This document shows, piece after piece, positions 37,899-57,476 of a stretch of 64,000 nucleotides of DNA (within the stretch, counting starts at the first letter, position 1; each line of letters opens with the position of its first letter). Below the pieces are notes generated by a model. That model saw only the letters and a list, made by a program, of their open reading frames with translations, searched no databases and was not told where the DNA came from. The stretch comes from a phage. The translations under genes were made by a program, and so were the position numbers. The stretch is from the sequence record PZ338878.1. The stretch is one strand, 5' to 3'.

Positions 37899-38408
37899 TT
37901 AGCGATAGAATTGATGTTCTTTGTAGCGGTACACTAGAACCATATCTTTTTCCCAGTGTGCTCTTATTGTAGATTTTTTAAAGTATAATGCTCCTTTTGT
38001 AATATCTAATGCAATTCGTAATTCTGGAAAATGGTTATCGAGATAAAGTAGACGTTCTGCTATAGCTTTAGCGTCTTTCCACTTATCGTGTTCCATAACG
38101 TTGAATGTCTTCGTGTAAGAGAATTGTCCTTTTTGAAACAAAACTTCTTTTATAGTATCAGGGAAATATGAATCTCTCGCCCTATTCAATACTACATTAC
38201 CAACAGCAGACATACCGCGCTTTCCTTGATTACGACTTTCTGCATAGATTGCACAAGCTAATAGATTTTCTTTACTATCACGCTTTGTACACTTGTGAAC
38301 TACTTTAGCAGTTTTTACGTTTGCAGCTTCGGCTTGCGCCACAACAGGTGTAAATGTAAAAGCAGTTAAGGATAGTAACGCAATTGCGACAAAGGTTTTT
38401 ATTGACAA
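37899..38408 (-). CDS. secreted cell-wall hydrolase, SleB/Hydrolase_2 family (candidate endolysin)
   Basis: N-terminal signal peptide (MSIKTFVAIALLSLTAFTFTPVVAQA); CAIYAESRNQGKRGMSAVGNVVLNRARDSYFPDTIKEVLFQKGQFSY resembles SleB-type hydrolases. Confidence 0.65.
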   Translation of the reverse strand: MSIKTFVAIALLSLTAFTFTPVVAQAEAANVKTAKVVHKCTKRDSKENLLACAIYAESRNQGKRGMSAVGNVVLNRARDSYFPDTIKEVLFQKGQFSYTKTFNVMEHDKWKDAKAIAERLLYLDNHFPELRIALDITKGALYFKKSTIRAHWEKDMVLVYRYKEHQFYR

Positions 38409-38490: not shown

Positions 38491-38500
38491 TTACACTCTG

Positions 38501-39103
38501 TTAGATATTGTAAACCTTTGTATGAGTTACTACACCATCTTCTACAAAATCAATACGTTCTTGATCCGTAACTAGTGCAGACAACACTTTAAATTTAATT
38601 TTTACACGTTCAAAAGCTGGTTGACCATCTTTAAGATAATTATGTTCAGTTGTCACTGTCTTGTTTACAAAATCAACTTTTGCTTTACCGTTCTCGCGTA
38701 AGTGGAATGTTTTTCCTGCTTTATACACAATTTCAACATTACCTTCGAGAGTAATTCCTTCAAAAAGTTCACCCTCTTCTTCATTTTCTTCACTTTTGAA
38801 CAGACGACGAAACTCTTCCATATCAAGATAAACAACATCTTCAGAATAACTATCAGTAAGATATGTCTTACCCTCCATTAACCCGAAATATTGCCAGATT
38901 GCCGAATAAACATCACTAGATGATCCAAGGGTTTCTCTGAGTTTAGTTCCACGGATTACTTCATAAACTTCAAAATTGAAACCAGACTGCAAAGCATCAA
39001 ACAGCACATCACTAACTTCTAAAGCATAATCTTCATTGTTGTCAATATCTACAAGAAAATTGCCGCTACGAATAAGTTTTTGACCTTCTAAAGTAATACT
39101 CAT
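38501..39103 (-). CDS. hypothetical protein
   Basis: 200 aa acidic ORF. Confidence 0.45.
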   Translation of the reverse strand: MSITLEGQKLIRSGNFLVDIDNNEDYALEVSDVLFDALQSGFNFEVYEVIRGTKLRETLGSSSDVYSAIWQYFGLMEGKTYLTDSYSEDVVYLDMEEFRRLFKSEENEEEGELFEGITLEGNVEIVYKAGKTFHLRENGKAKVDFVNKTVTTEHNYLKDGQPAFERVKIKFKVLSALVTDQERIDFVEDGVVTHTKVYNI

Positions 39104-39119
39104 TGTTTTCTCCTCTTTT

Positions 39120-39150
39120 ATTTCAAATATGCGCCCCGAAGGGCGCTATG
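39120..39150 (-). terminator. terminator-like hairpin downstream of terD-like gene
   Basis: GCGCCC-CGAA-GGGCGC followed on the minus strand by a T-rich run. Confidence 0.5.
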
Positions 39151-39167
39151 ATTTATTACTTGATGTA

Positions 39168-39764
39168 TTACTCGAACCAATCGTCGCCAGCGCCAAACGC
39201 TTTAACTACATCGTAAATGTCAAGCCCAGCTTTACCTACACCATATGCTTTCAGTTTCCATTCGCTATCTTCTCGCACCAGGGAGGCAACGTGGCAAATG
39301 GTGTTACCTGCAAGTTCTGGAGCCAAGAAGTCAAAGTCCAGCAGTTCAACATTACGTTCATCATCGAAGATTTTAAGGAAACCTTCGGTAGCGTGACCAA
39401 GGCGTTTCTTACCCGTTTCGTCATCAATAGTAATTACGAATGCAATTTCCTGTGCTTCAGCAGAGATATTATCCAGTGTAACATCAATCTGCTCCATCTG
39501 TCCTACACCATCACGAACATCTTCACCTGCAAAAGTAGAACGTTCAGGATCAAATTTCTGTGCGTAGCACACCAGGTGACGAGGAGACAACAGTTCCGGC
39601 AGACCAGATGCATTGTGTCGGCAAATCAGAGCACTAACATCCAGATCCAGTTTTTCGTTAGATTTCCAAGAGAATTCCAGACGAATGCGTTTCAGTGCTG
39701 GTGCGATCTTTTTCAGAGAAACTTTTTCGCTAGAACCTTTTTTCAGGGAAATTTTCTGAGTCAT
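39168..39764 (-). CDS. terD: TerD-domain protein
   Basis: ISLKKG...VSLKK, DLDVSAL, FAGEDVRDG, EIAFVITIDD, EWKLKAYGVG match TerD-family hallmarks. Confidence 0.8.
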   Translation of the reverse strand: MTQKISLKKGSSEKVSLKKIAPALKRIRLEFSWKSNEKLDLDVSALICRHNASGLPELLSPRHLVCYAQKFDPERSTFAGEDVRDGVGQMEQIDVTLDNISAEAQEIAFVITIDDETGKKRLGHATEGFLKIFDDERNVELLDFDFLAPELAGNTICHVASLVREDSEWKLKAYGVGKAGLDIYDVVKAFGAGDDWFE

Positions 39765-39837
39765 AATTTATTATCTCCTTTGTTGTTAATTTACGTTGTC
39801 TATTTTACTAATCTTTTCTACAAAGTCAAGCGTTTTT

Positions 39838-40632
39838 TTACGCTTTTGCTCCGAATTTTTTAACCCACTCACCAAACTCTTCAGATAACAATTTATCGTA
39901 AAGTTCTTCATCAGACAAGGACAAATCTGCAATACCGATAAAATCAACATTATCGTACTCTTTTGCCAAGTCTTTCAGGAATTTAAAGTTTGCATTACCT
40001 ACACCAACCATAAACCAGTAAACAGGCGTATTGCGGTGTTTGTTCAGTAAGCTACGTACTGCTGAAGTATCCATGTTTTCCCCGTCAGTTTGGAAGAAAA
40101 TCATTGCAGGAGTACGATCAACTTGTGCATCAGTATCTACAACCTGTTCTACAACAGTACGTGTTACTTCTACAAGTTCTTTTTTACCAGTTAGTTTAGC
40201 AAGGAAACCCTTAGCTGGGACTTCTTCATACTCAACGACTTCGCGTGTAATATTTTTCATAGGTACACTACCGAAGTATGTATCATAGATCTCCTGCATT
40301 ACTGGAGCATAAGCAGTACCACCATTGATGCAAACATTAGACATGCAAGAGCCGACATAATCATCATACACATCAGCCGTTGCAGGAGGCAGTTCAAAAG
40401 AAGAACTATTGAAAGCCCACATGTCAATCTGTGCATTGTCATCAAACTTCATACCAAACGGCAGCAGTTTACCTACAAAATCACTAACAGTGCCATCACG
40501 ATACAGCTCACACATACTACCCGAAATATCTAAGGCGCTACCGACACGAAGAACAACATCGTTAATCTTTTTCTTACGCAGAGATACAGTAAGAGTTTCT
40601 TGACGTTTTTTAAGACTGATTTTATTGGACAT
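39838..40632 (-). CDS. vWA-domain protein with TerD-like N-terminal motif (TerY/TerF-like)
   Basis: N-terminal ISLKKRQETLTVSLRK then MIDAS-type DISGSM. Confidence 0.6.
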   Translation of the reverse strand: MSNKISLKKRQETLTVSLRKKKINDVVLRVGSALDISGSMCELYRDGTVSDFVGKLLPFGMKFDDNAQIDMWAFNSSSFELPPATADVYDDYVGSCMSNVCINGGTAYAPVMQEIYDTYFGSVPMKNITREVVEYEEVPAKGFLAKLTGKKELVEVTRTVVEQVVDTDAQVDRTPAMIFFQTDGENMDTSAVRSLLNKHRNTPVYWFMVGVGNANFKFLKDLAKEYDNVDFIGIADLSLSDEELYDKLLSEEFGEWVKKFGAKA

Positions 40633-40633
40633 A

Positions 40634-40903
40634 TTATTTCTCCTTTCTGAGTGTAATGTTAGTAACTTCTAAATCCACTTCTACCATTTCTGTATCATAT
40701 GAAATACAGCTAAGTTGACCTCTTTGTGAACCGTTCAGACACATTGCTTGGTTTGTATTAACTTTAATAAACACTAAGTTTCTGAACGTATCTAAACCAG
40801 AATCTTGATACGCAACATAATATACGAATGTATCACCTGCGTCAAGTTCTCCAAAACATTTAGGTTCATCTGATTTATCGTCTTTGATATTAAATTTAAG
40901 CAC
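40634..40903 (-). CDS. hypothetical protein
   Basis: 89 aa. Confidence 0.4.
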   Translation of the reverse strand: MLKFNIKDDKSDEPKCFGELDAGDTFVYYVAYQDSGLDTFRNLVFIKVNTNQAMCLNGSQRGQLSCISYDTEMVEVDLEVTNITLRKEK

Positions 40904-41459
40904 TGTCTTCTCCTTTACCTGCCCTCCAGCCTAAATAGAAAGCCTCTCTGGTGATCTTTTGCAACTCGTTTAAAGAGATAGTTACAACTAAATTATCTTC
41001 AATTTCTAGCTTTGAGTCTTCTTCTGTCTCAATGCAAGTATTATGCACTTTGTGGTAAGGATTGTCAACACGTTTAAATTTATTATTTTCAGTGCTGAAG
41101 AAGCAATCTGGATCTTCTTCTCCATCACCCCAACCCTGGTTAGGGTCTTCTTCAGATCTTTCTGTTGGGATCTCACCTGTAAAGTGCTCTTCTAATACCA
41201 TAGCGATACCATCTCCAAGATCGGAAGAGAACATCAAATTACAAACTTCTTCCCAAGGCATAGACCACTTAAATCTTTTACGATTACCATGTTTATCTTC
41301 TTCGTTAGAGAAAACACTACCATAGCTATCATAATTGCCATACATCTCTTCAACAACTTTACCACCTTTCAAAAGAAATAGGTAGCAAGGAGAACCATCG
41401 AAAGAGGTAGAAAGAGCAGCATTGCCAGACTCTTTGCACAAGAAACTAAAACACCCCAT
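40896..41459 (-). CDS. hypothetical acidic protein
   Basis: 187 aa; C-terminal motif LNELQKITREAFYLGWRAG. Confidence 0.45.
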   Translation of the reverse strand: MGCFSFLCKESGNAALSTSFDGSPCYLFLLKGGKVVEEMYGNYDSYGSVFSNEEDKHGNRKRFKWSMPWEEVCNLMFSSDLGDGIAMVLEEHFTGEIPTERSEEDPNQGWGDGEEDPDCFFSTENNKFKRVDNPYHKVHNTCIETEEDSKLEIEDNLVVTISLNELQKITREAFYLGWRAGKGEDSA

Positions 41460-41659
41460 TATACACCAGCCTTAAGATCAATTAAAGCCAAAGTTGTTTC
41501 AGAATGTGTTTGCTCGTCTACAGGTGCAGTCATATGATAATACAAAAAGTCTTCGGCATCATACCAATCTGATTCTTGACCTTGTTTCCAACCATCAATG
41601 AAAGCATCCTCCATAATGGTTTGTAATTCTTCACGAGTTAAGTGAATATCTTTATTCAT
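41459..41659 (-). CDS. hypothetical protein sharing motif with upstream neighbour
   Basis: 66 aa; N-terminal LTREELQTIMEDAFIDGWKQG. Confidence 0.4.
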   Translation of the reverse strand: MNKDIHLTREELQTIMEDAFIDGWKQGQESDWYDAEDFLYYHMTAPVDEQTHSETTLALIDLKAGV

Positions 41660-41892
41660 TACACATTCTCCTCTTTTACCAATTCCATCGTTGAACTATC
41701 AAAACCATCTTTAGAAGAATAGGTATAGACAGAACGTAGTTCTCGCAGGACAGTAAATACATTAGGATCATCTAACCAAGCATCCTGGAGGAGAACATAA
41801 CGATCTTCATTGTCATACTGGACAGCAATCATAGAACCAGACAGTTTGTAAATTTTAATATTCATAATATATTTCTCCTTAAAGTAGACCAC
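41659..41892 (-). CDS. hypothetical protein
   Basis: 77 aa. Confidence 0.4.
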   Translation of the reverse strand: MVYFKEKYIMNIKIYKLSGSMIAVQYDNEDRYVLLQDAWLDDPNVFTVLRELRSVYTYSSKDGFDSSTMELVKEENV

Positions 41893-42982
41893 GTTTAACA
41901 GTTTGAATCATACCATCTTCAAGAGATTGCACTTCTTGAATGTAATCAATACGAGCAGCACGGGCTTCAGTGTTGATTCGGTTAGTTTCTTCCAACATTT
42001 TAACTAAGTTTTCTTGATCGCGACGTAATGTTTCAATATCCAATACTTGACGATTAGCAAGTTGCGTAGCTTCAATTTGGTTTTGTGCAGCCAGATCACT
42101 ACCCATTGCAATAGCAGCATTAAATTCATTCAGTACATTGTTCTGTGTATCGGCTGCTTTCTTCTGGCGTAGACTTTCAATATACATAGAAAAGTTTGCA
42201 GAGTAAGCAGGAATAACATTATTCACAATATTACGGGCTGATCGCATCAAACTTGCAGATACTTTCTGCATACTTTGTACACGTGGCCCCATCTGAACAC
42301 ACAGTAAACGCAAGGCTTTCAGGTCTGCAATACGAATTTCAAGCAGATCCATAGTATCACGAGTACGTTGACGCTCTTCTACTTCATTTTCAGGTAGTGT
42401 ATTAAGGCGAACTTCTTCTTTTTCATAAGTAGCTGTTAGAAGCTCTATATCCCTGTTTAAGCTAAGAGCATATTTTGCAATAGCCTCTTCTAAACGTTGC
42501 AGATATCGTAAAGAATCTTCTTCTTTTTTCAAGTCTGTTTGGAGTGTCTTTACCAAACCTTCAATACGATTATTGATGGTGTCAAATTCACCAAACAAAT
42601 CTTCTTTCATACCTAATACTTTCTTAACTAGTTTACCTAAGCCTTTAGATTGTTTAATAGAATTAGGATCAAGTTGCTTTGCTTGCTTAATAAGTGCAGT
42701 TAAACGCTCACTCATTTCATCTCCCTGAGATGAACGCTGGTGTTTAAGCACTTCCGCATTAAGGTTACGAAGAGTAAGTCCTGCATCAGCACCAACCTGT
42801 TCAATCTCTTCACGAGACATTGGAGGCAGCATTTGTACAGGTCGTGCAACAGCAGGGGCATATACAGGGCTTGCATCCATAGCAGTTGGAGCAAACAAAG
42901 ACTTACTTTTTTCTGTTGTTGCCGTGAATACACTCATTTCAGACGGTTTGCTTTTTACGGCACTGATAAAAGGACTGGACAT
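41879..42982 (-). CDS. telA: TelA-like toxic anion resistance family protein
   Basis: 367 aa, largely helical/coiled-coil, with size and pattern resembling TelA/KlaA; context with TerD/TerC. Confidence 0.55.
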   Translation of the reverse strand: MSSPFISAVKSKPSEMSVFTATTEKSKSLFAPTAMDASPVYAPAVARPVQMLPPMSREEIEQVGADAGLTLRNLNAEVLKHQRSSQGDEMSERLTALIKQAKQLDPNSIKQSKGLGKLVKKVLGMKEDLFGEFDTINNRIEGLVKTLQTDLKKEEDSLRYLQRLEEAIAKYALSLNRDIELLTATYEKEEVRLNTLPENEVEERQRTRDTMDLLEIRIADLKALRLLCVQMGPRVQSMQKVSASLMRSARNIVNNVIPAYSANFSMYIESLRQKKAADTQNNVLNEFNAAIAMGSDLAAQNQIEATQLANRQVLDIETLRRDQENLVKMLEETNRINTEARAARIDYIQEVQSLEDGMIQTVKRGLL

Positions 42983-43050
42983 TCAATTTCCTCCATATTC
43001 TTTAGTAGATGGTGATACCTCTGTACCACCATCATAACACAAATTAAGTA

Positions 43051-43902
43051 TTAAACAAACATATCTAAATAATTTGTAGTAATAAATGCTCCATCTGCTT
43101 CCAGATTAACATAACCAGTAGCATTAGTGGTTAAGAAATCCAGATCGAAGGACTCTTTAACACCCCGTACCTCAACACGAGAGATATCGAATACAGGTAG
43201 TGTAACAGCCTCTTCGTGCAATACCGTACCTTTGTAGGTTGCCTTAATGATAAACTTGATATTACCCGTTCCCGCATCATACAAAACACTTTCAAAGCCT
43301 TTGAGAGTATACTTATCACCAGAGGTGAAGTGCAAAGTTGCTTTGTTTACAGTACGTTTTTTACGAGGAGTTCCTTTCACACGTTTATGATCACTACGTT
43401 TTTTGTATTTAGGAATGAATACAAACGATACACTCTCAAGAAAAGTATCAACATCAAGGATTTTAATATCCTCTGTTGCAGCAAATTTTGAAGTCGTTGC
43501 ATCAAAATGCTTTGCTCTGCGATCATACATAAAGATATCAAACCGATCTTCTAAATCAAACAAATTGTGTATCTTAATTTCAGAATGCTTGCACATTGCA
43601 GCAACCTTAAACTCTTCAAAACGTGGGTGTTCTACAAGCTCTTCAAGTTTTACACCAAAGACAGTATATTGTTTCGAAGTTTTTTCTGGCGTTGGCATTA
43701 CAGAAGCATAATCACCGATTGCGCTTTTAAAGCAAAATTGTTCTTGACCTGTATTTTTACCAACGAATTTACAGTATTCGTCATCGTGCATACTTTCTTT
43801 GGTAGTACCAACAAACTCAAAACCATCTTTATTCTTCTCAAGAATTTCTTGATTAAAGATCCAACCTTCCAGGCGATACACTTTACCAACTTCTAGTTTC
43901 AT
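43051..43902 (-). CDS. hypothetical protein
   Basis: 283 aa; basic patch KKRSDHKRVKGTPRKKRTVNK. Confidence 0.45.
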   Translation of the reverse strand: MKLEVGKVYRLEGWIFNQEILEKNKDGFEFVGTTKESMHDDEYCKFVGKNTGQEQFCFKSAIGDYASVMPTPEKTSKQYTVFGVKLEELVEHPRFEEFKVAAMCKHSEIKIHNLFDLEDRFDIFMYDRRAKHFDATTSKFAATEDIKILDVDTFLESVSFVFIPKYKKRSDHKRVKGTPRKKRTVNKATLHFTSGDKYTLKGFESVLYDAGTGNIKFIIKATYKGTVLHEEAVTLPVFDISRVEVRGVKESFDLDFLTTNATGYVNLEADGAFITTNYLDMFV

Positions 43903-43937
43903 CTGTTTCTCCTTCTTATTTAATCTGTATTAAATTA

Positions 43938-44543
43938 TTAACGACGACGTGAGCTACTAAAACTACGTTTCGACGAAGAATAACTTTTCGAAGACTTACT
44001 ATAAGAGCTAATAGGGCTTGAGTAAGACTTACGAGCAGAGTAATCACTATTCACTTTTGTTGTTGATGGGCGTGAATACGTTTGTACACTTTGCTGCTTA
44101 ATTGTGTTTTGTTTAGTTGTTGTATATGTATTCCCTTGTTTATCATAAAAACTATGCTTTTGTGTTGTATATGATTTACTGTTAGTTGTAGGAGCAGCGT
44201 TGTTATTAATAATTGTTGTATTGCTACCGCCATCTCTATAACCACCACCGCCACTATTACCACTCAACATATGACCAAGAAGCATACCTGTAGCAAATTC
44301 ACCTACACCAGAAGAACCACTGCCGCCTCCTTGCACAACAACTGTTGAAGGCTGTGCAGGTGCTGCTTGAACAACTTGAGGTGCAGGTTGATTTACATAT
44401 TGTTCATCTACCATCTGATTTGGTGTCTGTTGGTAACGTTGGTTTTGTACATTTTCAGAATCATCACAACCTACCAGCAATGCACTACCTAAAACAACTG
44501 CAACAATAAAAGATTTAATGTTTTTCATTTGTAACCCTCTCAT
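43938..44543 (-). CDS. lipoprotein with Gly-zipper segment
   Basis: Signal peptide with lipobox (VVLGSALLVG-C); Q/P-rich linker; GGGSGSSGVGEFATGMLLGHMLSGNSGGGG; S/Y/T-rich basic C-terminus. Confidence 0.55.
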   Translation of the reverse strand: MRGLQMKNIKSFIVAVVLGSALLVGCDDSENVQNQRYQQTPNQMVDEQYVNQPAPQVVQAAPAQPSTVVVQGGGSGSSGVGEFATGMLLGHMLSGNSGGGGYRDGGSNTTIINNNAAPTTNSKSYTTQKHSFYDKQGNTYTTTKQNTIKQQSVQTYSRPSTTKVNSDYSARKSYSSPISSYSKSSKSYSSSKRSFSSSRRR

Positions 44544-44721
44544 TTAAAGTCTCGACACAATTTTTAAAATCTCTAGAGAAACAATACATCTGTTCTCCGT
44601 TCCTGTTGATAGTAATTGTATGGTTATCAACATATGTTGTCAAGATAAAAATCAAACAAAATAACCCTAAAGCAAAACAAATATTTTCAAACAGAATCCA
44701 AAGAACACGTAAAACCACCAT
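44515..44721 (-). CDS. small membrane protein
   Basis: 68 aa; N-terminal TM helix; GAGGTGA RBS; overlaps 5' end of lipoprotein ORF. Confidence 0.3.
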   Translation of the reverse strand: MVVLRVLWILFENICFALGLFCLIFILTTYVDNHTITINRNGEQMYCFSRDFKNCVETLNERVTNEKH

Positions 44722-44736
44722 CAGATCACCTCAATA

Positions 44737-44757
44737 AAGCCCCCGAAGGGGCTTAAT
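44737..44757 (-). terminator. terminator-like hairpin downstream of terC
   Basis: AAGCCCC-CGAA-GGGGCTT followed on the minus strand by TTTATT. Confidence 0.45.
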
Positions 44758-44760
44758 AAA

Positions 44761-45738
44761 TTAAGCAACAGACTGGTCTTCTTTTTCAGGGAAGATTAAA
44801 CTTGCAATAACACCCAGCCCCAGAGTACCTAACACAATATACATACTGATCGTCGGATCAATGTGTGCTGGCAGGAAACTCACTTTTGCGTGCAGAGTTT
44901 CTGCAAACGGGTGATACATCAGTTTTACACCCACAAATACCAGGACTACGATAACTGCTTTCTCCAGATGAACCAAATATTTCAGTGCAACACTAAGGAC
45001 AAAGAACAGAGCACGCAGACCTAAAATTGCACACAGCATTGAAGAAAATACAAGCAGAGGTTCTTGTGTCACTGCAATTACTGCTGGAACAGAGTCTACT
45101 GCAAAAATTACGTCAACCATTTCCATTACAAATACACAAACCAATGCAGGAGTTGCTACACGAACACCATTTTTGATTGTGAAGAACTTCTCACCATCCA
45201 TCTGATCAGATACAGGGAACAGCTTACGAACAATGCGAGTAGCCCAGTGCTTAGAGTAATCAACTTCTGCGTCATTATCTCCAGCAAATACCATTTTAGC
45301 TGCACAGAAAAGGATGACCGCACCGAAGAAGATATTAACATACCAACCCAAACTCAACAAGTAAGTGCCTACTGCTACAAACACACCTCGGAAGACAATC
45401 GCACCTGCAATACCCCAAAGTAGAATCTTGTGTTGCAAGTGTGTGCTTTTAATACCAAAACTTGCGAATACTGCCACAAATACTACTAAGTTATCTACAG
45501 AAAGAGATTTCTCCAACACATACCCACTCAAAAACAAGCTCGCAAAATCAGCACCGTGTTGGAAGTATACAAAACCATAGTAGGCTAACGATACCCCAAT
45601 CCAGAAAATTGACCAGCCAATTGCAGATTTAAATGAAATTTCTTTGTTTTCTCTGTGTCCAAAGAAATCAATACAAATCGACAAGACTAAAATACCCACT
45701 AAAACAACCACATCAATAATTGGGAAACCCAGTTGCAT
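44761..45738 (-). CDS. terC: TerC-family integral membrane protein
   Basis: 325 aa with multiple TM helices and the TerC-type LEKSLSVDNLVVF motif. Confidence 0.8.
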   Translation of the reverse strand: MQLGFPIIDVVVLVGILVLSICIDFFGHRENKEISFKSAIGWSIFWIGVSLAYYGFVYFQHGADFASLFLSGYVLEKSLSVDNLVVFVAVFASFGIKSTHLQHKILLWGIAGAIVFRGVFVAVGTYLLSLGWYVNIFFGAVILFCAAKMVFAGDNDAEVDYSKHWATRIVRKLFPVSDQMDGEKFFTIKNGVRVATPALVCVFVMEMVDVIFAVDSVPAVIAVTQEPLLVFSSMLCAILGLRALFFVLSVALKYLVHLEKAVIVVLVFVGVKLMYHPFAETLHAKVSFLPAHIDPTISMYIVLGTLGLGVIASLIFPEKEDQSVA

Positions 45739-45756
45739 TCTTTTCTCCTCTTTAAT

Positions 45757-45775
45757 GCGGAGGACAATCCTCCGC
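45757..45775 (-). promoter_or_regulatory. hairpin in terC 5' leader
   Basis: GCGGAGGA-CAA-TCCTCCGC perfect stem-loop 18 nt upstream of the terC RBS; no U-tract. Confidence 0.35.
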
Positions 45776-45815
45776 TCTATGTCGTATACTATAAACTGTT
45801 TTTAAAGAAAGTCAA

Positions 45816-46064
45816 CTAGTTCAGTTCTGTAATTTTAAGTTTATCTTCTTTGTTAATGATAGGGAAAGCTACAGCATCACCTACATCATCAATAAAGCAA
45901 ACAGCAAGACCACCTTCCACTTTGCTAACCTGACCATTAAAGGCGTGATACGGGGCAGGAACAATATCTCCATCTTCAAGGAGAATAGCCTCATAAACCT
46001 TACCAATAGTACAATCACGAGTGTTTTTAAATTTTTCAAGCACTTCAACATTTACTTTACGCAT
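45816..46064 (-). CDS. hypothetical protein
   Basis: 82 aa. Confidence 0.45.
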   Translation of the reverse strand: MRKVNVEVLEKFKNTRDCTIGKVYEAILLEDGDIVPAPYHAFNGQVSKVEGGLAVCFIDDVGDAVAFPIINKEDKLKITELN

Positions 46065-46078
46065 ATAAAGATCCTCTC

Positions 46079-46285
46079 TTATTTGTTAGATTGAAAGATA
46101 CCACGAAGTACCGCAAGAATGAACGTCACACAGACTACACTCCAAAACGTTACAGGAACATGATGCCAGTCTAAGCCGATAATGTCAATCATATAGTTGT
46201 ATGCTAAAAGCAGTAGCCAACTAGGGATTAACACAATCAAGAACACAACAATAAAACAACCTAATACTGCTAAAACACCTGCCAT
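46079..46285 (-). CDS. small membrane protein (two TM helices)
   Basis: 68 aa; VLAVLGCFIVVFLIVLIPSWLLLLAY and FWSVVCVTFILAVL. Confidence 0.45.
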   Translation of the reverse strand: MAGVLAVLGCFIVVFLIVLIPSWLLLLAYNYMIDIIGLDWHHVPVTFWSVVCVTFILAVLRGIFQSNK

Positions 46286-46294
46286 ACTTTCTCC

Positions 46295-47011
46295 TTATTT
46301 CAGTTTGTAAACAATTACATTTAAACCTTTGTTCACTAGAGTTTCTTCGATCATAAGTTTTACAATATTCCAAGAACCTCCAGCCAAACCACAACCAAGC
46401 ATTGGTAAACCTACAATTTTACCGCCTGAAGATACAACATCGTCTCCCATACTATCTAACGCATTGTAGATAGCTTCATAATTCAGGTCACGCTTACCTT
46501 CCTCACGACGACTATAACCATATTGTCCATATAAATTATAAATTGTCAAATTGTTTTCTGTATACTTAGTAAACGTACCTAATTTTTTATAATCACCACG
46601 TTTAGTGGCACAATCTGCTTTAAACGCACCAGGCCACTTGCTTTTAATTTTTGGTGCAATACCACTACCCATAGTGCAAAAACAGTTACAGCAGTGTGCT
46701 ATAGCGTCTATATCGCCTCTCTCTGCTGCTGCTAAAAGATCACCGTATACCTCAATGATACCTGGTGGATAACTTGTTACAATTTCATCTTCCCAGTACA
46801 TTTGCTCTACACCACCGATCAGTGCAAAGTTTTGTGTGATGCGATCATCAATATAATTAAGACCTGAAACATACACAGCATATTCATCCTGTGCTGTAAT
46901 GCCTTGTACACGAATTCTTAAGACACCATCTTTATCTGTTGCTACACGCCCAAAATCTTTTTCTGTAATATTGGTGATAGGATCTCCGAAAGTCGTCACT
47001 TTATTAGACAT
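46295..47011 (-). CDS. macro-domain protein (ADP-ribose binding/processing)
   Basis: ORF-track 46295-47077, start at internal ATG with AAAGGGGA RBS; GDIDAIAHCCNCFCTMGSGIAPKI and LPMLGCGLAGGSW resemble macro-domain motifs. Confidence 0.55.
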   Translation of the reverse strand: MSNKVTTFGDPITNITEKDFGRVATDKDGVLRIRVQGITAQDEYAVYVSGLNYIDDRITQNFALIGGVEQMYWEDEIVTSYPPGIIEVYGDLLAAAERGDIDAIAHCCNCFCTMGSGIAPKIKSKWPGAFKADCATKRGDYKKLGTFTKYTENNLTIYNLYGQYGYSRREEGKRDLNYEAIYNALDSMGDDVVSSGGKIVGLPMLGCGLAGGSWNIVKLMIEETLVNKGLNVIVYKLK

Positions 47012-47073
47012 AATAATCCCCTTTAACATTAGATTTGTTGATAATGTTGCTTTCAAAAAATTGACGCAGGAAA

Positions 47074-47862
47074 TCAAAGTTCTCTTTGTATTTTTTCAAT
47101 ATTATTGTAACCTTCTGCAAGGCAACCAAAGAACAGTTGTTCTACATAATACAAAGGAAGTTGTGAAAGTGCAATTTTAAAATCAACTTCGCTTTGACTC
47201 ATTAGATACTTAATAGGACGAACCAAACATTTAGCATCAGTTTCTTGCTTAATCATTTTAATAAAAGCTGCCAAGTTATTGATATAGTTGAAGTTAAGTG
47301 CAGCTTCGGTGTTGGCTTCTGTACCTTCATACTTTGCAAAGTACAGGAAAAACGTATCGTTTTCAACACCTTCTTTGTCTAAAATTTCAATAAGTTTTTC
47401 TTCGTGTGTTCCTGTAATATTAACATCATCAATGAAAATCAGAGTTTTATTACCCCAGAAATCACGATTGATAGAGAAAGTGTCACCATCGATCAAAGCC
47501 TTACGATCTTCTTTGCTAAGAAATCCATAATCATTGATATAACTCACTTTACGATGAACGATATCCCACTCTACTGCTTTACCTCCTTTGATAGAGATTA
47601 GGTAGTTGAGGTGATCTACAAAATGCTCAGATAACACTGTAGCTGCATTTTTCACATAGTTATATGGAGATGGAATAACAACAAAACTTTCATTTGCCAG
47701 TCGTTCTTCATACTTAGAAAAGAAACTTTCAGCCAAAATGCGCCCCATTCTTTTTGCTGCCTGGTTACTACCAAACTTTAGTTTGGAATAATCTGCAATA
47801 TTAAATTTTGCTTCCTTCAGGTTAGTAAAAGTATTAGCAAAATGTTGAATTTGATTACGCAT
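47074..47862 (-). CDS. phosphoribosyltransferase (PRTase)-like protein
   Basis: PRPP-binding-type motif KTLIFIDDVNITGTHEEK. Confidence 0.6.
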   Translation of the reverse strand: MRNQIQHFANTFTNLKEAKFNIADYSKLKFGSNQAAKRMGRILAESFFSKYEERLANESFVVIPSPYNYVKNAATVLSEHFVDHLNYLISIKGGKAVEWDIVHRKVSYINDYGFLSKEDRKALIDGDTFSINRDFWGNKTLIFIDDVNITGTHEEKLIEILDKEGVENDTFFLYFAKYEGTEANTEAALNFNYINNLAAFIKMIKQETDAKCLVRPIKYLMSQSEVDFKIALSQLPLYYVEQLFFGCLAEGYNNIEKIQREL

Positions 47863-48511
47863 TAATAAGTTCCTCTTTTTTAAGTTTAGCCAACAAGTCT
47901 TCTGGATTAATAATATGACAGAACTTCATCCCTATGTCAACAGCTTTTCCATCATAAATCAAACTATCTCCAACGTGTAAAATCTCCTCTGGTGCGAGAT
48001 CAAACGTTACCATTTCATCAAAAGAGAGTTTAAAAAACCTAGGATCTGGTTTACACAAGCAAAACTCATCAGAAAAATGCATAAAGTCAAATGGTAATTT
48101 TGTTAAGCCAGAATATACAGCTAAGAAACTACCTGGTACAAAATTAGTATTGCTCTTAATACTCAAAGAATAGATTGAACTCAGCTCTTCCAATTTCTTG
48201 CAAAGCTCAGGGTTCAATATTGGAGGATGTTTTATAAACATTGCTAAACAGTCTCTTTTTAACCCATCCACTTTATCAAGATCAATGTTCAAACGAGTAG
48301 AAAGTGTTTCCCAAGCATTCCTAGACGTTCCACAAATGCCTTTTTCTGCTTTTAAATCCAGGAGAGTTTTTACCTCTTTATATACGGTAGCTGCTTCTGC
48401 CTCAGAACAAGAGGCATACTCGGCAATAACCTTGTTGCGTTCTTCTGCATACAAAGGATTAGCAGTAATAAGAGTATTCCATACATCAAAAGAAATATGC
48501 TTAACAGTCAT
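47855..48511 (-). CDS. HAD-superfamily hydrolase-like protein
   Basis: ORF-track 47855-48529, start at ATG 48511 after GGAGG; motif I-like FDVWNTL, motif III K in CKPDPRFF, motif IV HVGDSLIYD. Confidence 0.5.
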   Translation of the reverse strand: MTVKHISFDVWNTLITANPLYAEERNKVIAEYASCSEAEAATVYKEVKTLLDLKAEKGICGTSRNAWETLSTRLNIDLDKVDGLKRDCLAMFIKHPPILNPELCKKLEELSSIYSLSIKSNTNFVPGSFLAVYSGLTKLPFDFMHFSDEFCLCKPDPRFFKLSFDEMVTFDLAPEEILHVGDSLIYDGKAVDIGMKFCHIINPEDLLAKLKKEELINA

Positions 48512-48513
48512 TT

Positions 48514-48669
48514 TTAATCCTCCGTCCAAAAGAATATCATCTGCTTAATTTTATTGATCTCTTGATGTAGTAACTTTCCAGCATGTGATTGATCTTTAAT
48601 ATTGACAGCAAGAATTTCAAGCTCCGTTAGTTTTTCCTGAATAGCTTTATATTCATCATCTGTAAGCAT
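48514..48669 (-). CDS. small helical protein (about 51 aa)
   Basis: Unlisted short ORF (MLTDDEYKAIQEKLTELEILAVNIKDQ...) with purine-rich RBS, filling the gap between the 48681 ORF and the HAD gene. Confidence 0.25.
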   Translation of the reverse strand: MLTDDEYKAIQEKLTELEILAVNIKDQSHAGKLLHQEINKIKQMIFFWTED

Positions 48670-54701: not shown

Positions 54702-57476
54702 TTAGTTTACCAGTTTATTTATGTCTGGTAAAAGATTTATTTCACCTAAAAAATCACCTTCACCTTCCTCTAGCCAACTCTCATATGCTTGTGCATGATT
54801 ATAGTTACCATCAAAAGAATCTGCAACAAATTTTTCTACAGTTTTTCGAGATGTGCCAGCGCCAAATACACCAAGTTTAATACCATTGATCGGTAAAGTA
54901 GGGCTTGTTGGTACTTTCTCTGTTGCAACACGGTTGATATCTATAATCTCTTGTACAGTTGTATTCCATTGTAAGCATTTAACACAACGGGTATGCGCTA
55001 CATACAGTAAGTTTCGCTCTGCCTCTTCTAGTCCTACCCATTCACCAGTCTTTTTATCATAGTTGGAAGGAAAATCATTAGCAACAATAACCTGATCCCA
55101 CTCCAAACCTTTAGACTTATGTGCTGTAGTCAGTGTGACTTTTGCTGTAGGAGAATTTCTATGCGTTCTAAGTGTATGTGCTATAGTGTTTGCCTTGCCA
55201 GAAACTACGATGTTTAACAAGCGTTTAGCATCTGGATCAGCCTCTGCACACTCAACAAATTCATTCCAGTCTGCGTAAGGTAATACAGTTTCATGTTTTA
55301 CTTTCTCAATATCCCCTCTCCGAAGAGCATTAACACTATCCACCATAGAGATAAAATCCCTGGTATCTACGTTAATAATAATTTCTTCCCCATCTGCAAT
55401 ACGATCCATTGCCTCCATAAGCAAGGTTAAATTCTTGCGAAAGATGATAGTGTAAGGTTTTGTATAGTCTACAACATCTGATTTGTAGCTACCTACTACA
55501 GTATCAAAGCCTTTACCAACCAAAGGATGACGCAAAGGTTCTTTATCACTTAAAATCATATTCGCAATGTTTGCCACTTTGGGGCCAAAACGGAAGCAAG
55601 CAGTTAATGGAAGCTCTGCCCCATACTTAGCTGTTTCAATCATCATATTAGAGCTACCTCTAAATTGATAAATGCAGTTGTGGCTAAGAATTTCATTGCC
55701 AAAAAAGTTAGCAGTATCTTCTACTTCAATATCATAATAGATACCCTCACTATCTACAATGTCCACAATCTCTTCTGCCGTTACAGTATCACCATCTTTT
55801 ACTAACACAGACATGCCTTTAAACAAACCCGCTGCCGGAATTAAATTATATTTGGGAGTGTTCACAGAGGACATGCATTCTTTTAAAGATGCAAACGGAA
55901 CTATTTCAAGGATCTTTTGTGCAAAACTCAATGCTTCACGATAAGAATTGAAATATTTACGTACACGGTAACGACCTTCCAATTTAGCAACACTTACGCT
56001 TACACCTGCTTCAATGAGTGAGGCATAGATTGGCATTTCACTTTCTGTCCACTCAAAGCTAACTTGTGTTCCTTTACAACCTTGTGCTCGCAAAGTCACT
56101 GTTAACATTTTTCTTGCATCTACTGCACAATTGATGCTGTGCCAATGTGGATAAGCAAAATGATAGTCTTTATCCTCTAAAAGTTTAAAACCATTTTGTC
56201 CGAATTGTTCAAAGATATTGTTGATCCTTTCTTGATTAATACCGCGTGAACTTGCTTCAAATACACAAGTAGGAATGCCATATTGTAAACTGTATGCCAT
56301 TTCTTTTTCCATAGCAGCTTCACGGTTTTCAACAATATCCAACACCCACAACTTCTGTGCTTTTTCAGAACGTGTACGTTGCCCCAGTTTAGAAAAACCT
56401 TCTTTATCATCGAATTTGTTAGTGATCCCTACTCGGAAACCTAAATCTTTTCTCCACATTAGGTATACCACCATCTGATCATCTTTCAGAACATAAGGTG
56501 AAGCCCAAATACGATGGTTATGTGTCATATCTAAAGTCTTACCTTTAGCAGTAATAATATTCCTACCTTTTGTACGTGTAGATAAAGTCTTATTTGTTAC
56601 TTTTCTAAATGTAACTTTACCGTTAGAATAAGACTCTACCTTATCACCGATTTGCAGGTCTTTCATTGTAACCTGACCATTTTCGGTATTAAGTACCGTG
56701 TTTTCTGACACACATTGGAATTCATCACCAACTACCACAATTTGTTTGGCAGATTTAGCATTCCGCAGAATAGACAAGAATGCAGGGTTAACATCCTGGA
56801 ATTCATCCCCAAAAATAATGTCATAACCAAGATCAGCACCAGACAATTCAAACAATTTTACATAGGTGTCATGCGTCATCAAAGTATCTGTGTTAGGATC
56901 AATGCGCTCTCGCCACAATTGTTTTGCATACTTAACTACTTCTGTAATTAGTTTGTGTTCGTTAATACCTTTTCTTTTAATATCTGCAAGATGTACACCA
57001 GGAAAATGTTTACGGCTGATAAAAGGATCATCCGAAAATTCAAACTTACCTACGGTTTGCTTGATCATTAAACCAATCATAGCACGAGTTAAAAGTGTTT
57101 TCCCTCGTTTATCAATAAGATTATTAATCTTAAATTTCTTTGCTATCTCACTACCTGTACCTGCAACGTTAACATACTGTCCTTCTGGTCGTGACAGTTT
57201 TGCACGTAAACGATGATCCAGGAATTGATAGCAAATGGAATGCAATGTACGGCATTCTACATTTGGTGGCATCTTACGCCGTGCTTCTTCTGCCATGCTT
57301 TTATTGAAAGCTAAGTAAAGAATGCGATCTTCTGTACTGTTAGCCAGCAAATAAAGTGTTGACGTTTTTCCTGATCCAGATTTAGCTTGGATAGTTAAAA
57401 ACCGATGATCTGGAAAAGCCTCCTTAATAGCTGTTTGCTCTTCTGTTGGAGTAAAACTCAACTCTTTCTTAGCCAT
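54702..57476 (-). CDS. UvrD/Rep-like superfamily I DNA helicase containing an intein
   Basis: ORF-track 54702-57515, start at ATG 57476; Walker A AKSGSGKTST, motif II GDEFQD, motif III split by insertion (VVVGDEFQ | intein | CIYQFRGSS). Confidence 0.75.
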   Translation of the reverse strand: MAKKELSFTPTEEQTAIKEAFPDHRFLTIQAKSGSGKTSTLYLLANSTEDRILYLAFNKSMAEEARRKMPPNVECRTLHSICYQFLDHRLRAKLSRPEGQYVNVAGTGSEIAKKFKINNLIDKRGKTLLTRAMIGLMIKQTVGKFEFSDDPFISRKHFPGVHLADIKRKGINEHKLITEVVKYAKQLWRERIDPNTDTLMTHDTYVKLFELSGADLGYDIIFGDEFQDVNPAFLSILRNAKSAKQIVVVGDEFQCVSENTVLNTENGQVTMKDLQIGDKVESYSNGKVTFRKVTNKTLSTRTKGRNIITAKGKTLDMTHNHRIWASPYVLKDDQMVVYLMWRKDLGFRVGITNKFDDKEGFSKLGQRTRSEKAQKLWVLDIVENREAAMEKEMAYSLQYGIPTCVFEASSRGINQERINNIFEQFGQNGFKLLEDKDYHFAYPHWHSINCAVDARKMLTVTLRAQGCKGTQVSFEWTESEMPIYASLIEAGVSVSVAKLEGRYRVRKYFNSYREALSFAQKILEIVPFASLKECMSSVNTPKYNLIPAAGLFKGMSVLVKDGDTVTAEEIVDIVDSEGIYYDIEVEDTANFFGNEILSHNCIYQFRGSSNMMIETAKYGAELPLTACFRFGPKVANIANMILSDKEPLRHPLVGKGFDTVVGSYKSDVVDYTKPYTIIFRKNLTLLMEAMDRIADGEEIIINVDTRDFISMVDSVNALRRGDIEKVKHETVLPYADWNEFVECAEADPDAKRLLNIVVSGKANTIAHTLRTHRNSPTAKVTLTTAHKSKGLEWDQVIVANDFPSNYDKKTGEWVGLEEAERNLLYVAHTRCVKCLQWNTTVQEIIDINRVATEKVPTSPTLPINGIKLGVFGAGTSRKTVEKFVADSFDGNYNHAQAYESWLEEGEGDFLGEINLLPDINKLVN
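55677..56714 (-). mobile_element. intein (about 346 aa) inserted in helicase motif III
   Basis: Begins with Cys after DEFQ (CVSENTVLNTENGQVTMKDLQIGDKV), ends ...FGNEILSHN followed by +1 Cys; codons checked at both junctions. Confidence 0.65.

Follow-up and report, generated by a model that had tools for sequence, protein, structure and literature searches.

The Ter stress-response cluster, reportedly described by Anantharaman, Iyer and Aravind in 2012, is said to comprise TerC, TelA, TerD, a vWA/TerF protein, a phosphoribosyltransferase (PRTase) and a HAD protein, and we know of no lipoprotein, nor of any component resembling the small membrane protein gp181 considered below, in the bacterial Ter systems. 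Ter clusters are frequent in virulent phages, where their role is still unexplained (PMC8386662, PMC9796965), and plasmid ter clusters give phage inhibition and colicin resistance according to Whelan 1995, as cited in the same two papers. The analysis presented here concerns a lipoprotein gene, and a membrane-protein gene overlapping it, within a phage Ter cluster. The stretch of DNA analysed, 64,000 nucleotides (nt) of sequence record PZ338878.1 (in the following, the window), is by its sequence that of a phi92-like Escherichia coli myophage of the genus Justusliebigvirus, Stephanstirmvirinae; the region of the locus shows 97-99% identity to phi92-like coliphages. The two open reading frames (ORFs) under study, both on the minus strand, correspond to Phi92_gp180 (the lipoprotein) and Phi92_gp181 (a membrane protein of 68 amino acids, aa). 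Both are annotated as hypothetical in every record, the UniRef name for gp180 being 'Lipoprotein', and a literature search found no paper in which either is mentioned.

Among described lipoproteins, the closest named family to gp180 is YgiB/YjfM (DUF1190, PF06693, UPF0441), i.e. lipoproteins that also have a Gln/Pro-rich stretch and a Ser/Thr-rich basic C-terminal region; the function of YgiB is unknown (PMC11762307). The glycine-zipper lipoproteins OsmB, SlyB/Pcp and YmgG resemble gp180 as small lipoproteins with a Gly-x3-Gly helix, and the exclusion and conversion lipoproteins T5 Llp, Cor of phi80 and N15, lambda Bor and Ltp of TP-J34 resemble it in being small and phage-encoded, with the same kind of accessory-gene slot occupied by relatives of gp180 in temperate phages. 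Of these, Ltp has its anchor in the cytoplasmic membrane, as is predicted for gp180, and Llp, Cor and Bor belong to the outer membrane.

The explanation of gp180 that we favour, tentatively and with rather less than even confidence in the whole, is an inner-membrane-anchored, periplasm-facing, non-lytic accessory lipoprotein of the envelope with a guard or modifier role; the functional part is the weakest.

Architecture and predicted location of gp180

The gp180 homologue (Table 1) encodes a protein identical to YP_009984542 of phage PD06/PHB05, with a RefSeq length of 196 aa. In the initial annotation the gene was recognised as a lipoprotein ORF of 201 aa (43938-44543); the gene stands, the length does not. 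The start at 44543 adds five codons, and the ATG at 44528 is the better start because it is preceded by a GAGGG ribosome-binding site (RBS) 7-8 nt upstream, because all homologues in a 22-sequence alignment (A1) start at the equivalent MK or MN, and because RefSeq annotates the same length. Gp180 and gp181 are real genes and not chance ORFs, since they are conserved across phage records and lineages: gp180 is carried by 55 phage records with 95-100% identity and by other large phage contigs (140-155 kb) with 42-58% identity, and 65 phAPEC8-like records contain a divergent form of 145 aa; homologues of gp181 are found in six lineages (L006, L008, L011, L012, L016 and phAPEC8), with L27, C47 and C55 invariant.

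Residues 1-20 of gp180 constitute a signal peptide (MKNIK-SFIVAVVLGSAL-LVGC21) with a basic n-region, a hydrophobic h-region and the lipobox L-V-G-C21. This conforms to the sequence test for bacterial lipoproteins, a lipobox [LVI][ASTVI][GAS]C in the first ~35 residues, and lipidation is predicted; Cys21 is invariant in A1 and in a second alignment of 38 homologues (A2), and no cysteine follows it. The lipobox signal peptide and the lipoprotein prediction of the initial annotation are borne out by these data, as are its Gln/Pro-rich linker and its Ser/Tyr-rich basic tail by composition. In residues 21-72, Gln, Pro and Val are abundant (11 Q, 5 P and 8 V) and acidic residues outnumber basic ones (five versus one), and residues 97-196 contain 25 S, 14 T, 9 Y, 10 K and 7 R, with 17 basic versus 3 acidic residues and a net charge of +14.

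Linker and tail are separated by a conserved core (SGVGEFATGMLLGHMLSGNSGGGG) with the motif G81xxxG85xxxS89. Residues G74, G76, G81, G85 and S89 are invariant in A1; in A2, G81 is invariant and G85 is conserved in at least 90%. One face of the helix predicted for residues 74-89 is made up of small residues (E77, G81, G85, S89) and is well suited for packing against another helix. In an AlphaFold2 (AF2) model of gp180 from the 38-sequence alignment (mean predicted local distance difference test score, pLDDT, 55.8; predicted template modelling score, pTM, 0.19), order is limited to helices 2-19 and 74-89 plus a tiny hairpin, with the remainder predicted disordered; helix 74-89 is the sole ordered element outside the signal peptide.

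The stretch that had been termed Gly-zipper-like is, accordingly worded more narrowly, one short GxxxG-type helix, and it matches no curated glycine-zipper domain of Pfam: with the models Rick_17kDa_Anti, Gly-zipper_Omp, Gly-zipper_YMGG and Gly-zipper_OmpA no match of gp180 was obtained at E <= 0.1, and the sole weak match was YjbE (0.031). From the glycine-zipper lipoproteins gp180 differs in having one short helix and not a two-helix hairpin, in its long disordered flanks, and in its predicted inner-membrane location, theirs being the outer membrane. The wording 'GG(V/L/M)IGH', which we take to be that of OsmB, is common to many members of the gp180 family.

The family is large. When 1.84 billion representative proteins were searched with a profile of the phage clade, 245 matches were obtained at E <= 1e-3 and 37 at E <= 1e-10. 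PHROGs 21570 and 32479 cover the family, both of 'unknown function', and scans of gp180 and gp181 with Pfam, NCBIfam and PADLOC yielded no significant model match; weak matches to curated models comprised YjbE, DUF6693 (3.5e-4, below its cutoff) and matches to the signal peptide only. The members have in common a lipobox and a Q/P spacer, a core that reads 'SG(V/I)G(D/E)(F/L)xTGM(I/L)LGHM(M/L)SGG', a 'TTV(V/I)N' motif and a Ser-rich basic tail. Features were counted over 217 members (P0001-P0174, P0340-P0381): a lipobox is present in 189, with Asp (73), Gly (60) or Ser (33) as the most frequent residues at position +2, and 'DD' occupies +2/+3 in 46 members. About 188 of the 217 end in two basic residues (RR, KR or RK), which may serve to avoid a tail-specific protease or may be a binding or sorting signal. 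The median net charge is -2 for the spacer and +11 for the tail, which is positive in 183 of 184 members, and in about 183 of 184 the charge changes sign across the helix. The Met residues of the helix are not conserved family-wide; GxxxG and usually His are.

Named family members derive from Erwinia, Pantoea, Enterobacter, Raoultella, Burkholderia, Paraburkholderia and Robbsia, all called hypothetical, and 14 of the 14 family contexts examined are phage or prophage. A search for the core motif in 185,579 bacterial and archaeal species (one genome each) matched only 20 stretches, of which five were confirmed, and a tblastn search of the phage collection with two divergent family members gave no match (short core, low-complexity filtering). 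In the chromosome of Raoultella scottii (L017, 5867-6249), a prophage family member is split over two frames, the signal peptide in one and the core and tail in the other; by its sequence this would be either a pseudogene or a sequencing error.

The location of gp180 was predicted from the residues that follow the lipobox. Mature gp180 reads C-D-D-S, with Asp22 and Asp23 each conserved in at least 90% of A1, and C-D-(D/E/S) is found in 28 of 28 full-length close homologues. Asp at +2 is the LolCDE-avoidance signal of E. coli, i.e. a signal for inner-membrane retention (PMC5727369). The criterion used here was Asp at +2, strengthened by Asp, Glu, Gln or Asn at +3, and gp180 carries Asp at both positions. 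The same CDD is present in the inner-membrane lipoprotein AcrA (LTGC-DD, C-D-D-K; K-12 gene translated). On the strength of Asp-Asp at +2/+3, mature gp180 is predicted to be retained in the inner membrane and to face the periplasm.

An alternative topology would have the Gly-rich helix span the inner membrane and place the basic tail in the cytoplasm, where it might bind e.g. nucleic acid or the cytoplasmic TelA or TerD; gp180 would then be a lipid-anchored bitopic protein. The family-wide charge asymmetry described above is consistent with this, and so are the 28 family members that have no lipobox and still possess an N-terminal hydrophobic segment, and the term 'predicted integral membrane protein' applied to YgiB-like proteins by one source. 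The helix itself, however, argues against a membrane-spanning role: its hydrophobic stretch is only ~13 residues long and contains Glu/Asp and His, the segment lies outside the top-ranked windows of Kyte-Doolittle (KD) hydropathy, and its best 19-residue window amounts to about +10 kcal/mol on the Hessa biological scale (calculated by hand), which is far from spontaneous Sec insertion. Because it is too short, too polar and at ~+10 kcal/mol, the helix is not considered a Sec-inserted transmembrane segment, and the bitopic topology, although the main competitor of the favoured explanation, appears rather unlikely compared with a tail in the periplasm.

Lysis proteins and exclusion lipoproteins in comparison with gp180

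The initial annotation had offered an outer-membrane spanin-like component as one possible role. Gp180 would then be an o-spanin or u-spanin, with gp181 as the inner-membrane partner, and the outer membrane would be fused or disrupted at lysis. The order of the two genes does resemble Rz/Rz1, in that the gene of a small transmembrane protein is followed by an overlapping gene for a lipoprotein with a Pro/Gln-rich region, and relatives of gp180 in temperate phages adjoin lysis cassettes. The proteins differ from Rz/Rz1 and from T1 gp11, however, in several respects: the Asp-Asp at +2/+3 predicts inner-membrane retention, and the true o-spanins identified in this analysis carry Ala or Ser at the +2 position; gp181 offers ~40 periplasmic residues and no coiled coil, compared with 143 aa for the phi92 i-spanin; and gp180 lacks the C-terminal transmembrane segment of a u-spanin, its last 100 residues being polar and basic. 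The gp180 gene is also located ~5.5 kb from the endolysin gene, among early or metabolic genes, and prophages of Erwinia and Raoultella have Rz with an embedded Rz1 besides the gp180 relative.

Furthermore, the phi92-like phages have a separate spanin pair, just upstream of the terminase gene. In phi92, an i-spanin (143 aa, transmembrane segment and coiled coil) overlaps an o-spanin (109 aa, MMTGC-A), and the pair is described as the spanin complex in the paper on phage BME3 (PMC12210895) and in several database records. The phi92 o-spanin occurs in 135 phage records; 55 match at 99% or more, the same number as carry gp180, and the 135 include the 55 with gp180. Apart from gp180, the window has no credible lipobox ORF, and a lipobox ORF scan of phi92 from 1-50 kb and 132-148 kb found none. 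Lipobox ORF scans located the real o-spanin upstream of the terminase, and gp180 was rejected as the spanin; a spanin function of any type is extremely improbable.

Lysis genes are dispersed in phi92-like phages, since the spanin pair lies by the terminase, tens of kb from the endolysin. The SleB-like Hydrolase_2 'endolysin' of the window (37899-38408, minus strand) begins with a signal peptide that looks cleavable, and its gene adjoins neither a holin nor a spanin gene.

A role in the timing of lysis was also considered, i.e. that gp180 is a periplasm-facing modulator in the inner membrane of holin, pinholin or signal-arrest-release (SAR) endolysin triggering (antiholin-like or lysis inhibition). 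Three independent relatives in temperate phages flank holin/endolysin/Rz cassettes. In an Erwinia/Pantoea temperate phage (~43 kb) the gene comes directly after those for holin, endolysin and Rz, the last containing an embedded Rz1 (LLTGC-S); this is what we take to be the slot that bor occupies in lambda, directly after Rz/Rz1; in a Raoultella prophage it precedes a SAR endolysin and Rz with embedded Rz1; and in a Burkholderia prophage ~560 bp separate it from a holin-like gene downstream, which is accompanied by an SLT endolysin and an Rz-like gene. In the most divergent large phage (L004), the gp180 gene lies 2 kb downstream of a Hydrolase_2 endolysin, without gp181, and the endolysin of the window carries a signal peptide, which would suit such a role. 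Other family members are far from lysis genes, and in phi92-like phages the distance of gp180 amounts to 5.5 kb for the endolysin and to tens of kb for the spanins; in addition, the flanks of lysis cassettes are also classic sites of moron insertion. We therefore regard a function in lysis timing as quite unlikely.

Further contexts of the gene in phages are beside a tailspike gene, in a replication module, by amidoligase/ATP-grasp genes, and by ThyX/ribonucleotide reductase (RNR) genes, and the relatives in temperate phages occupy accessory-gene ('moron') positions. This scattered, accessory-like distribution argues for a self-contained accessory envelope function, and against an obligate subunit of TerC or a core lysis protein.

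Masking of a receptor at the outer membrane, the other function named in the initial annotation, would have gp180 block the receptor of this or of other phages in the manner of T5 Llp or Cor. A small phage lipoprotein with moron positions in temperate relatives is compatible with this, and +2 is occupied in many family members by Gly or Ser, residues that permit outer-membrane sorting in E. coli-type systems. In the clade of the window's phage, by contrast, the Asp-Asp retention signal is near-invariant, which weakens the proposal, and gp180 is predicted to be disordered and not a folded binder; Llp, Cor, Bor and Ltp are folded, and no sequence relation to gp180 is found in the libraries used. 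Comparison of gp180 with Pfam, PHROG and NCBIfam gave no match to a named exclusion-lipoprotein family, the presence of Llp and Cor models in these libraries being unchecked, and a PADLOC scan gave no defence-system match. The phi92-like phages recognise surface glycans via several tail-fibre proteins (PMC11984140), and not one protein receptor that could be masked. Receptor masking is, in our judgement, an improbable function of gp180, and the inner-membrane location remains preferred.

Gp181, the Ter cluster and the relation to YgiB

Gp181 and gp180 follow directly downstream of terC, inside the phage Ter cluster. The 68-aa membrane protein overlapping the start of the lipoprotein, and the position of both beside TerC, were correctly described in the initial annotation, TerC being encoded immediately upstream of gp181. 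Gp181 has a basic N-terminus, an N-terminal hydrophobic segment (KD 2.5 over 19 residues) and a C-terminal part of ~40 aa with two invariant cysteines; this sequence fits an N-in/C-out topology and a periplasmic disulfide. The same kind of gp181/gp180 overlap is present in L006, L011, L012, L016 and phAPEC8, and the pair is conserved in two genera; the overlap suggests translational coupling of the two genes. In phAPEC8 (L019, NC_020079), an unannotated gp181 homologue (~6810-7014) overlaps the start of the lipoprotein gene gp054 (6926-7438), which is annotated 25 codons too long, the real start being MKKLALIL at locus position 7001.

Two candidate regulatory sequences lie upstream of the overlap (Table 1). 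The sigma-70-like promoter match inside gp181 was compared in six aligned phages, all of which have TTGACA and, at an unchanged distance from it, a TAnnnT hexamer. The match may represent an internal promoter for gp180, or its conservation may come merely from the coding constraint on gp181, and the overall count of promoter-like sites was not above that of shuffled controls. The GC-rich hairpin between terC and gp181 is kept in six phages, with stem changes that preserve pairing (GCCCC/GGGGC versus GCCTCC/GGAGGC), and looks like a terminator or attenuator. Together, the hairpin and the internal promoter match hint that gp180 could be expressed apart from terC and gp181.

In the order of transcription, the cluster comprises a HAD hydrolase, a ComF-like PRTase, a macro domain/phosphatase protein, gp184, gp183, TerC, gp181, gp180, gp179, TelA, five small genes, a vWA (TerF-like) protein, TerD, gp171 and the signal-peptide-bearing Hydrolase_2 endolysin. 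Gp180 and gp181 lie between TerC and TelA in all Stephanstirmvirinae examined, a likeness to the Ter stress-response cluster that is limited by the occurrence of the gp180 family also without Ter genes. The TerC-to-TelA position of the gp180 gene was found in phi92, phAPEC8, L006, L011, L012, L016 and the distant L008, in which a Band_7 gene is inserted. A TerC, TelA and TerD neighbourhood was observed in Justusliebigvirus, Phapecoctavirus, L006, L008, L011, L012 and L016, and was not observed in L004, L013, L014, L017, L023, L024 and P0343. Adjacency to TerC is a trait of the Stephanstirmvirinae and close relatives and not of the wider family. Of the envelope-targeting unit proposed in the initial annotation, a true lipoprotein of the phage that has a small membrane protein as its partner beside TerC is retained, and an action on the envelope is plausible; the link to TerC does not hold family-wide.

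If gp180 were a subunit of the Ter system, it would, with gp181, bind the periplasmic side of TerC, and its His/Met helix (TGMxLGHMM) might relay or buffer metal exported by TerC. The order TerC-gp181-gp180-gp179-TelA is kept in Justusliebigvirus, Phapecoctavirus and distant large phages, down to 27-35% identity, the core motif of gp180 is Met- and His-rich, and TerC proteins act in metal export and in metalation at the periplasmic face (PMC10550928). Outside these myoviruses, however, family members are found with no Ter gene nearby, in L004 the gene no longer adjoins TerC and gp181 is missing, and a terminator-like hairpin stands between terC and gp181. Since the Met residues are not conserved family-wide, metal binding is kept only as part of this low-confidence alternative, to which we attach little probability.

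For the relation to YgiB, the resemblance is located in the Met/Gly-rich helix (FWMPLMAGYMMGRLMGGG in YgiB, FATGMLLGHMLSGNSGGGG in gp180). The hidden Markov model (HMM) of the gp180 family scored YgiB with 26 bits and a bias of 10 bits, and hhalign of the family profile against a YgiB alignment gave 58% probability over 19 columns (helix only), which is statistically weak; with the profile against YgiB as a single sequence, and with A1 against alignment A4, only the signal peptide was aligned. Gp180 gave no match to PF06693 at E <= 0.1, compared with 2.9e-55 for YgiB itself, and it lacks the Cys-rich N-terminal domain that forms most of the DUF1190 model. It also ends in RRR and not MGG, has Asp at +2 where YgiB has Glu, and has no ATP-grasp (YgiC-like) neighbour. 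Membership of gp180 in DUF1190/YgiB was rejected, and a motif-level resemblance, of the helix only, was kept. One protein of 301 aa (P0149; metagenomic contig of up to 395 kb) combines the Cys-rich N-domain of DUF1190 (2.7e-24) with a gp180-type core (GDFLTGMLLGNMMSGGG; 45 bits). Its sequence suggests a module shared by the two families, with homology not proven, and P0149 may connect, in evolution, the YgiB family of bacteria with the lipoprotein family of phages.

The positions of all features are summarized in Table 1. Conserved uncharacterised partners in the Ter module of the window are gp171, gp175, gp179, gp183 and gp184, and a Band_7/SPFH gene is added to the module in the more distant relatives L004, L008 and L013. 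Gp184, conserved upstream of TerC, is a small transmembrane protein of 68 aa with a hydrophobic N-terminal part; it is named 'holin' in the record of phage BME3, and supporting evidence for that label was not seen here. Four records of 'Campylobacter phage' (MG065639, MG065645, MG065656 and MG065689) are 98% identical to these coliphages over a query of 3.3 kb; probably, their host label is wrong or the sample was contaminated.

Table 1. Features of the gp180 locus and related genes (positions in the window unless stated otherwise)
Feature	Position	Strand	Basis or remark
gp180 homologue, coding sequence of a 196-aa lipoprotein, stop codon 43938-43940	43938..44528	-	ORF, RBS/start, homologues, PHROG 21570 (E = 5e-123)
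Signal peptide (residues 1-20) and Cys21, predicted lipidated	44466..44528	-	Cys21 invariant in 22 and in 38 homologues
Asp22-Asp23 (+2/+3), predicted LolCDE-avoidance/inner-membrane retention signal	44460..44465	-	near-invariant in A1
Gln/Pro/Val-rich acidic linker (residues 24-72), predicted disordered	44313..44459	-	composition; pLDDT 44-55; family median net charge -2
Conserved core (residues 73-96), GxxxGxxxS helix between glycine runs	44241..44312	-	alignments A1 and A2; AF2 helix
Ser/Thr/Tyr-rich polycationic tail (residues 97-196), TTIINNN motif, C-terminus SSSRRR	43941..44240	-	17 K/R versus 3 D/E; AF2 disorder
gp181 homologue, 68-aa membrane protein, one N-terminal transmembrane segment	44515..44721	-	ORF; hydrophobicity; PHROG 17591 (E = 5e-45)
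14-nt overlap of gp181 stop and gp180 start, ATGAAAAACATTAA	44515..44528	-	sequence
Sigma-70-like promoter match, TTGACA-17-TACAAT, 11/12	44615..44643	-	inside gp181, ~87 nt upstream of gp180 start
GC-rich hairpin followed by U-rich sequence, terminator-like	44737..44754	-	between terC stop and gp181 RBS; -14.6 kcal/mol
TerC-family integral membrane protein, Phi92_gp182 homologue	44761..45738	-	Pfam PF03741 (E = 1.2e-38) and annotation
gp184 homologue, small transmembrane protein	46079-46285	-	
TelA	41879-42982	-	Ter cluster member
Hydrolase_2 endolysin, signal-peptide-bearing	37899-38408	-	end of listed cluster
Whole phage Ter module (HAD, ComF-like PRTase, macro domain, TerC, TelA, vWA, TerD)	about 38500-48530	-	
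phi92 i-/o-spanin pair	phi92 55670-56336 (L022 5670-6336)		just upstream of terminase, outside the window

Proposed role in the infected cell

In the favoured explanation, gp180, as a non-lytic accessory factor from a widespread family that is nearly confined to phages, would be lipidated and then held in the outer leaflet of the host inner membrane, on the periplasmic side. The acidic Gln/Pro part would serve as a spacer of ~50 residues, the GxxxG helix would self-associate or insert shallowly in the membrane, and the polycationic Ser/Thr/Tyr tail of ~100 residues would bind anionic envelope components. Gp180 would be co-made with gp181 from the overlapping frames, and possibly also from its own host-type promoter, and the pair would guard or modify the interface of inner membrane and periplasm in the infected or lysogenic cell, most plausibly as a protection against the DNA entry of a second phage or against pore-forming toxins; in phi92-like phages, gp180 would act alongside TerC, TelA, TerD and the vWA protein. 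A guard function fits because the temperate relatives are in accessory-gene positions, and because of the phage-inhibition and colicin-resistance phenotypes of plasmid ter clusters, as far as these are cited in PMC8386662 and PMC9796965. The same two observations would lend indirect support to superinfection exclusion, which the initial annotation had named.

Several observations weigh against this explanation. The scans with PADLOC, Pfam and NCBIfam gave no homology that ties the gp180 family to any function, and moron-like positions fit many functions besides exclusion. Among the lipobox-bearing family members, 61% have no Asp at +2 (Gly or Ser instead), so inner-membrane retention is not a family-wide trait; in addition, the rules of lipoprotein sorting differ outside the Enterobacterales. 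The pattern of acidic residues before and basic residues after the helix resembles the positive-inside rule, by which the tail could be cytoplasmic. Finally, the linkage to TerC is lost in L004 and in all temperate phages with family members, which makes a Ter-specific role doubtful.

More speculatively, and on balance doubtfully, gp180 may found a large, almost phage-exclusive class of lipid-tethered, disordered polycationic proteins, defined by lipobox, acidic Q/P spacer, GxxxG-His helix, basic S/T/Y tail and dibasic C-terminus, which would represent a new superinfection-exclusion or membrane-guard factor, active with partners like gp181 where inner membrane and periplasm meet. If true, this class would be distinct from the receptor-masking lipoproteins, and might explain part of the phage and colicin resistance of ter clusters.

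If no exclusion or protection phenotype exists, a correction of annotation remains, i.e. the start of gp180, its sorting prediction, its description as 'not a spanin', and the missed gene in phAPEC8. In an entire subfamily of coliphages that are therapeutic candidates, TerC and TelA are accompanied by two conserved envelope proteins that had no annotation, and one of them, the lipoprotein, represents a far larger family carried by phages, whose architecture is sharply conserved and for which no curated model exists. If exclusion or protection at the inner membrane is true, it would represent a new class of mechanism in phage-phage competition and would provide a handle on the Ter module during infection.

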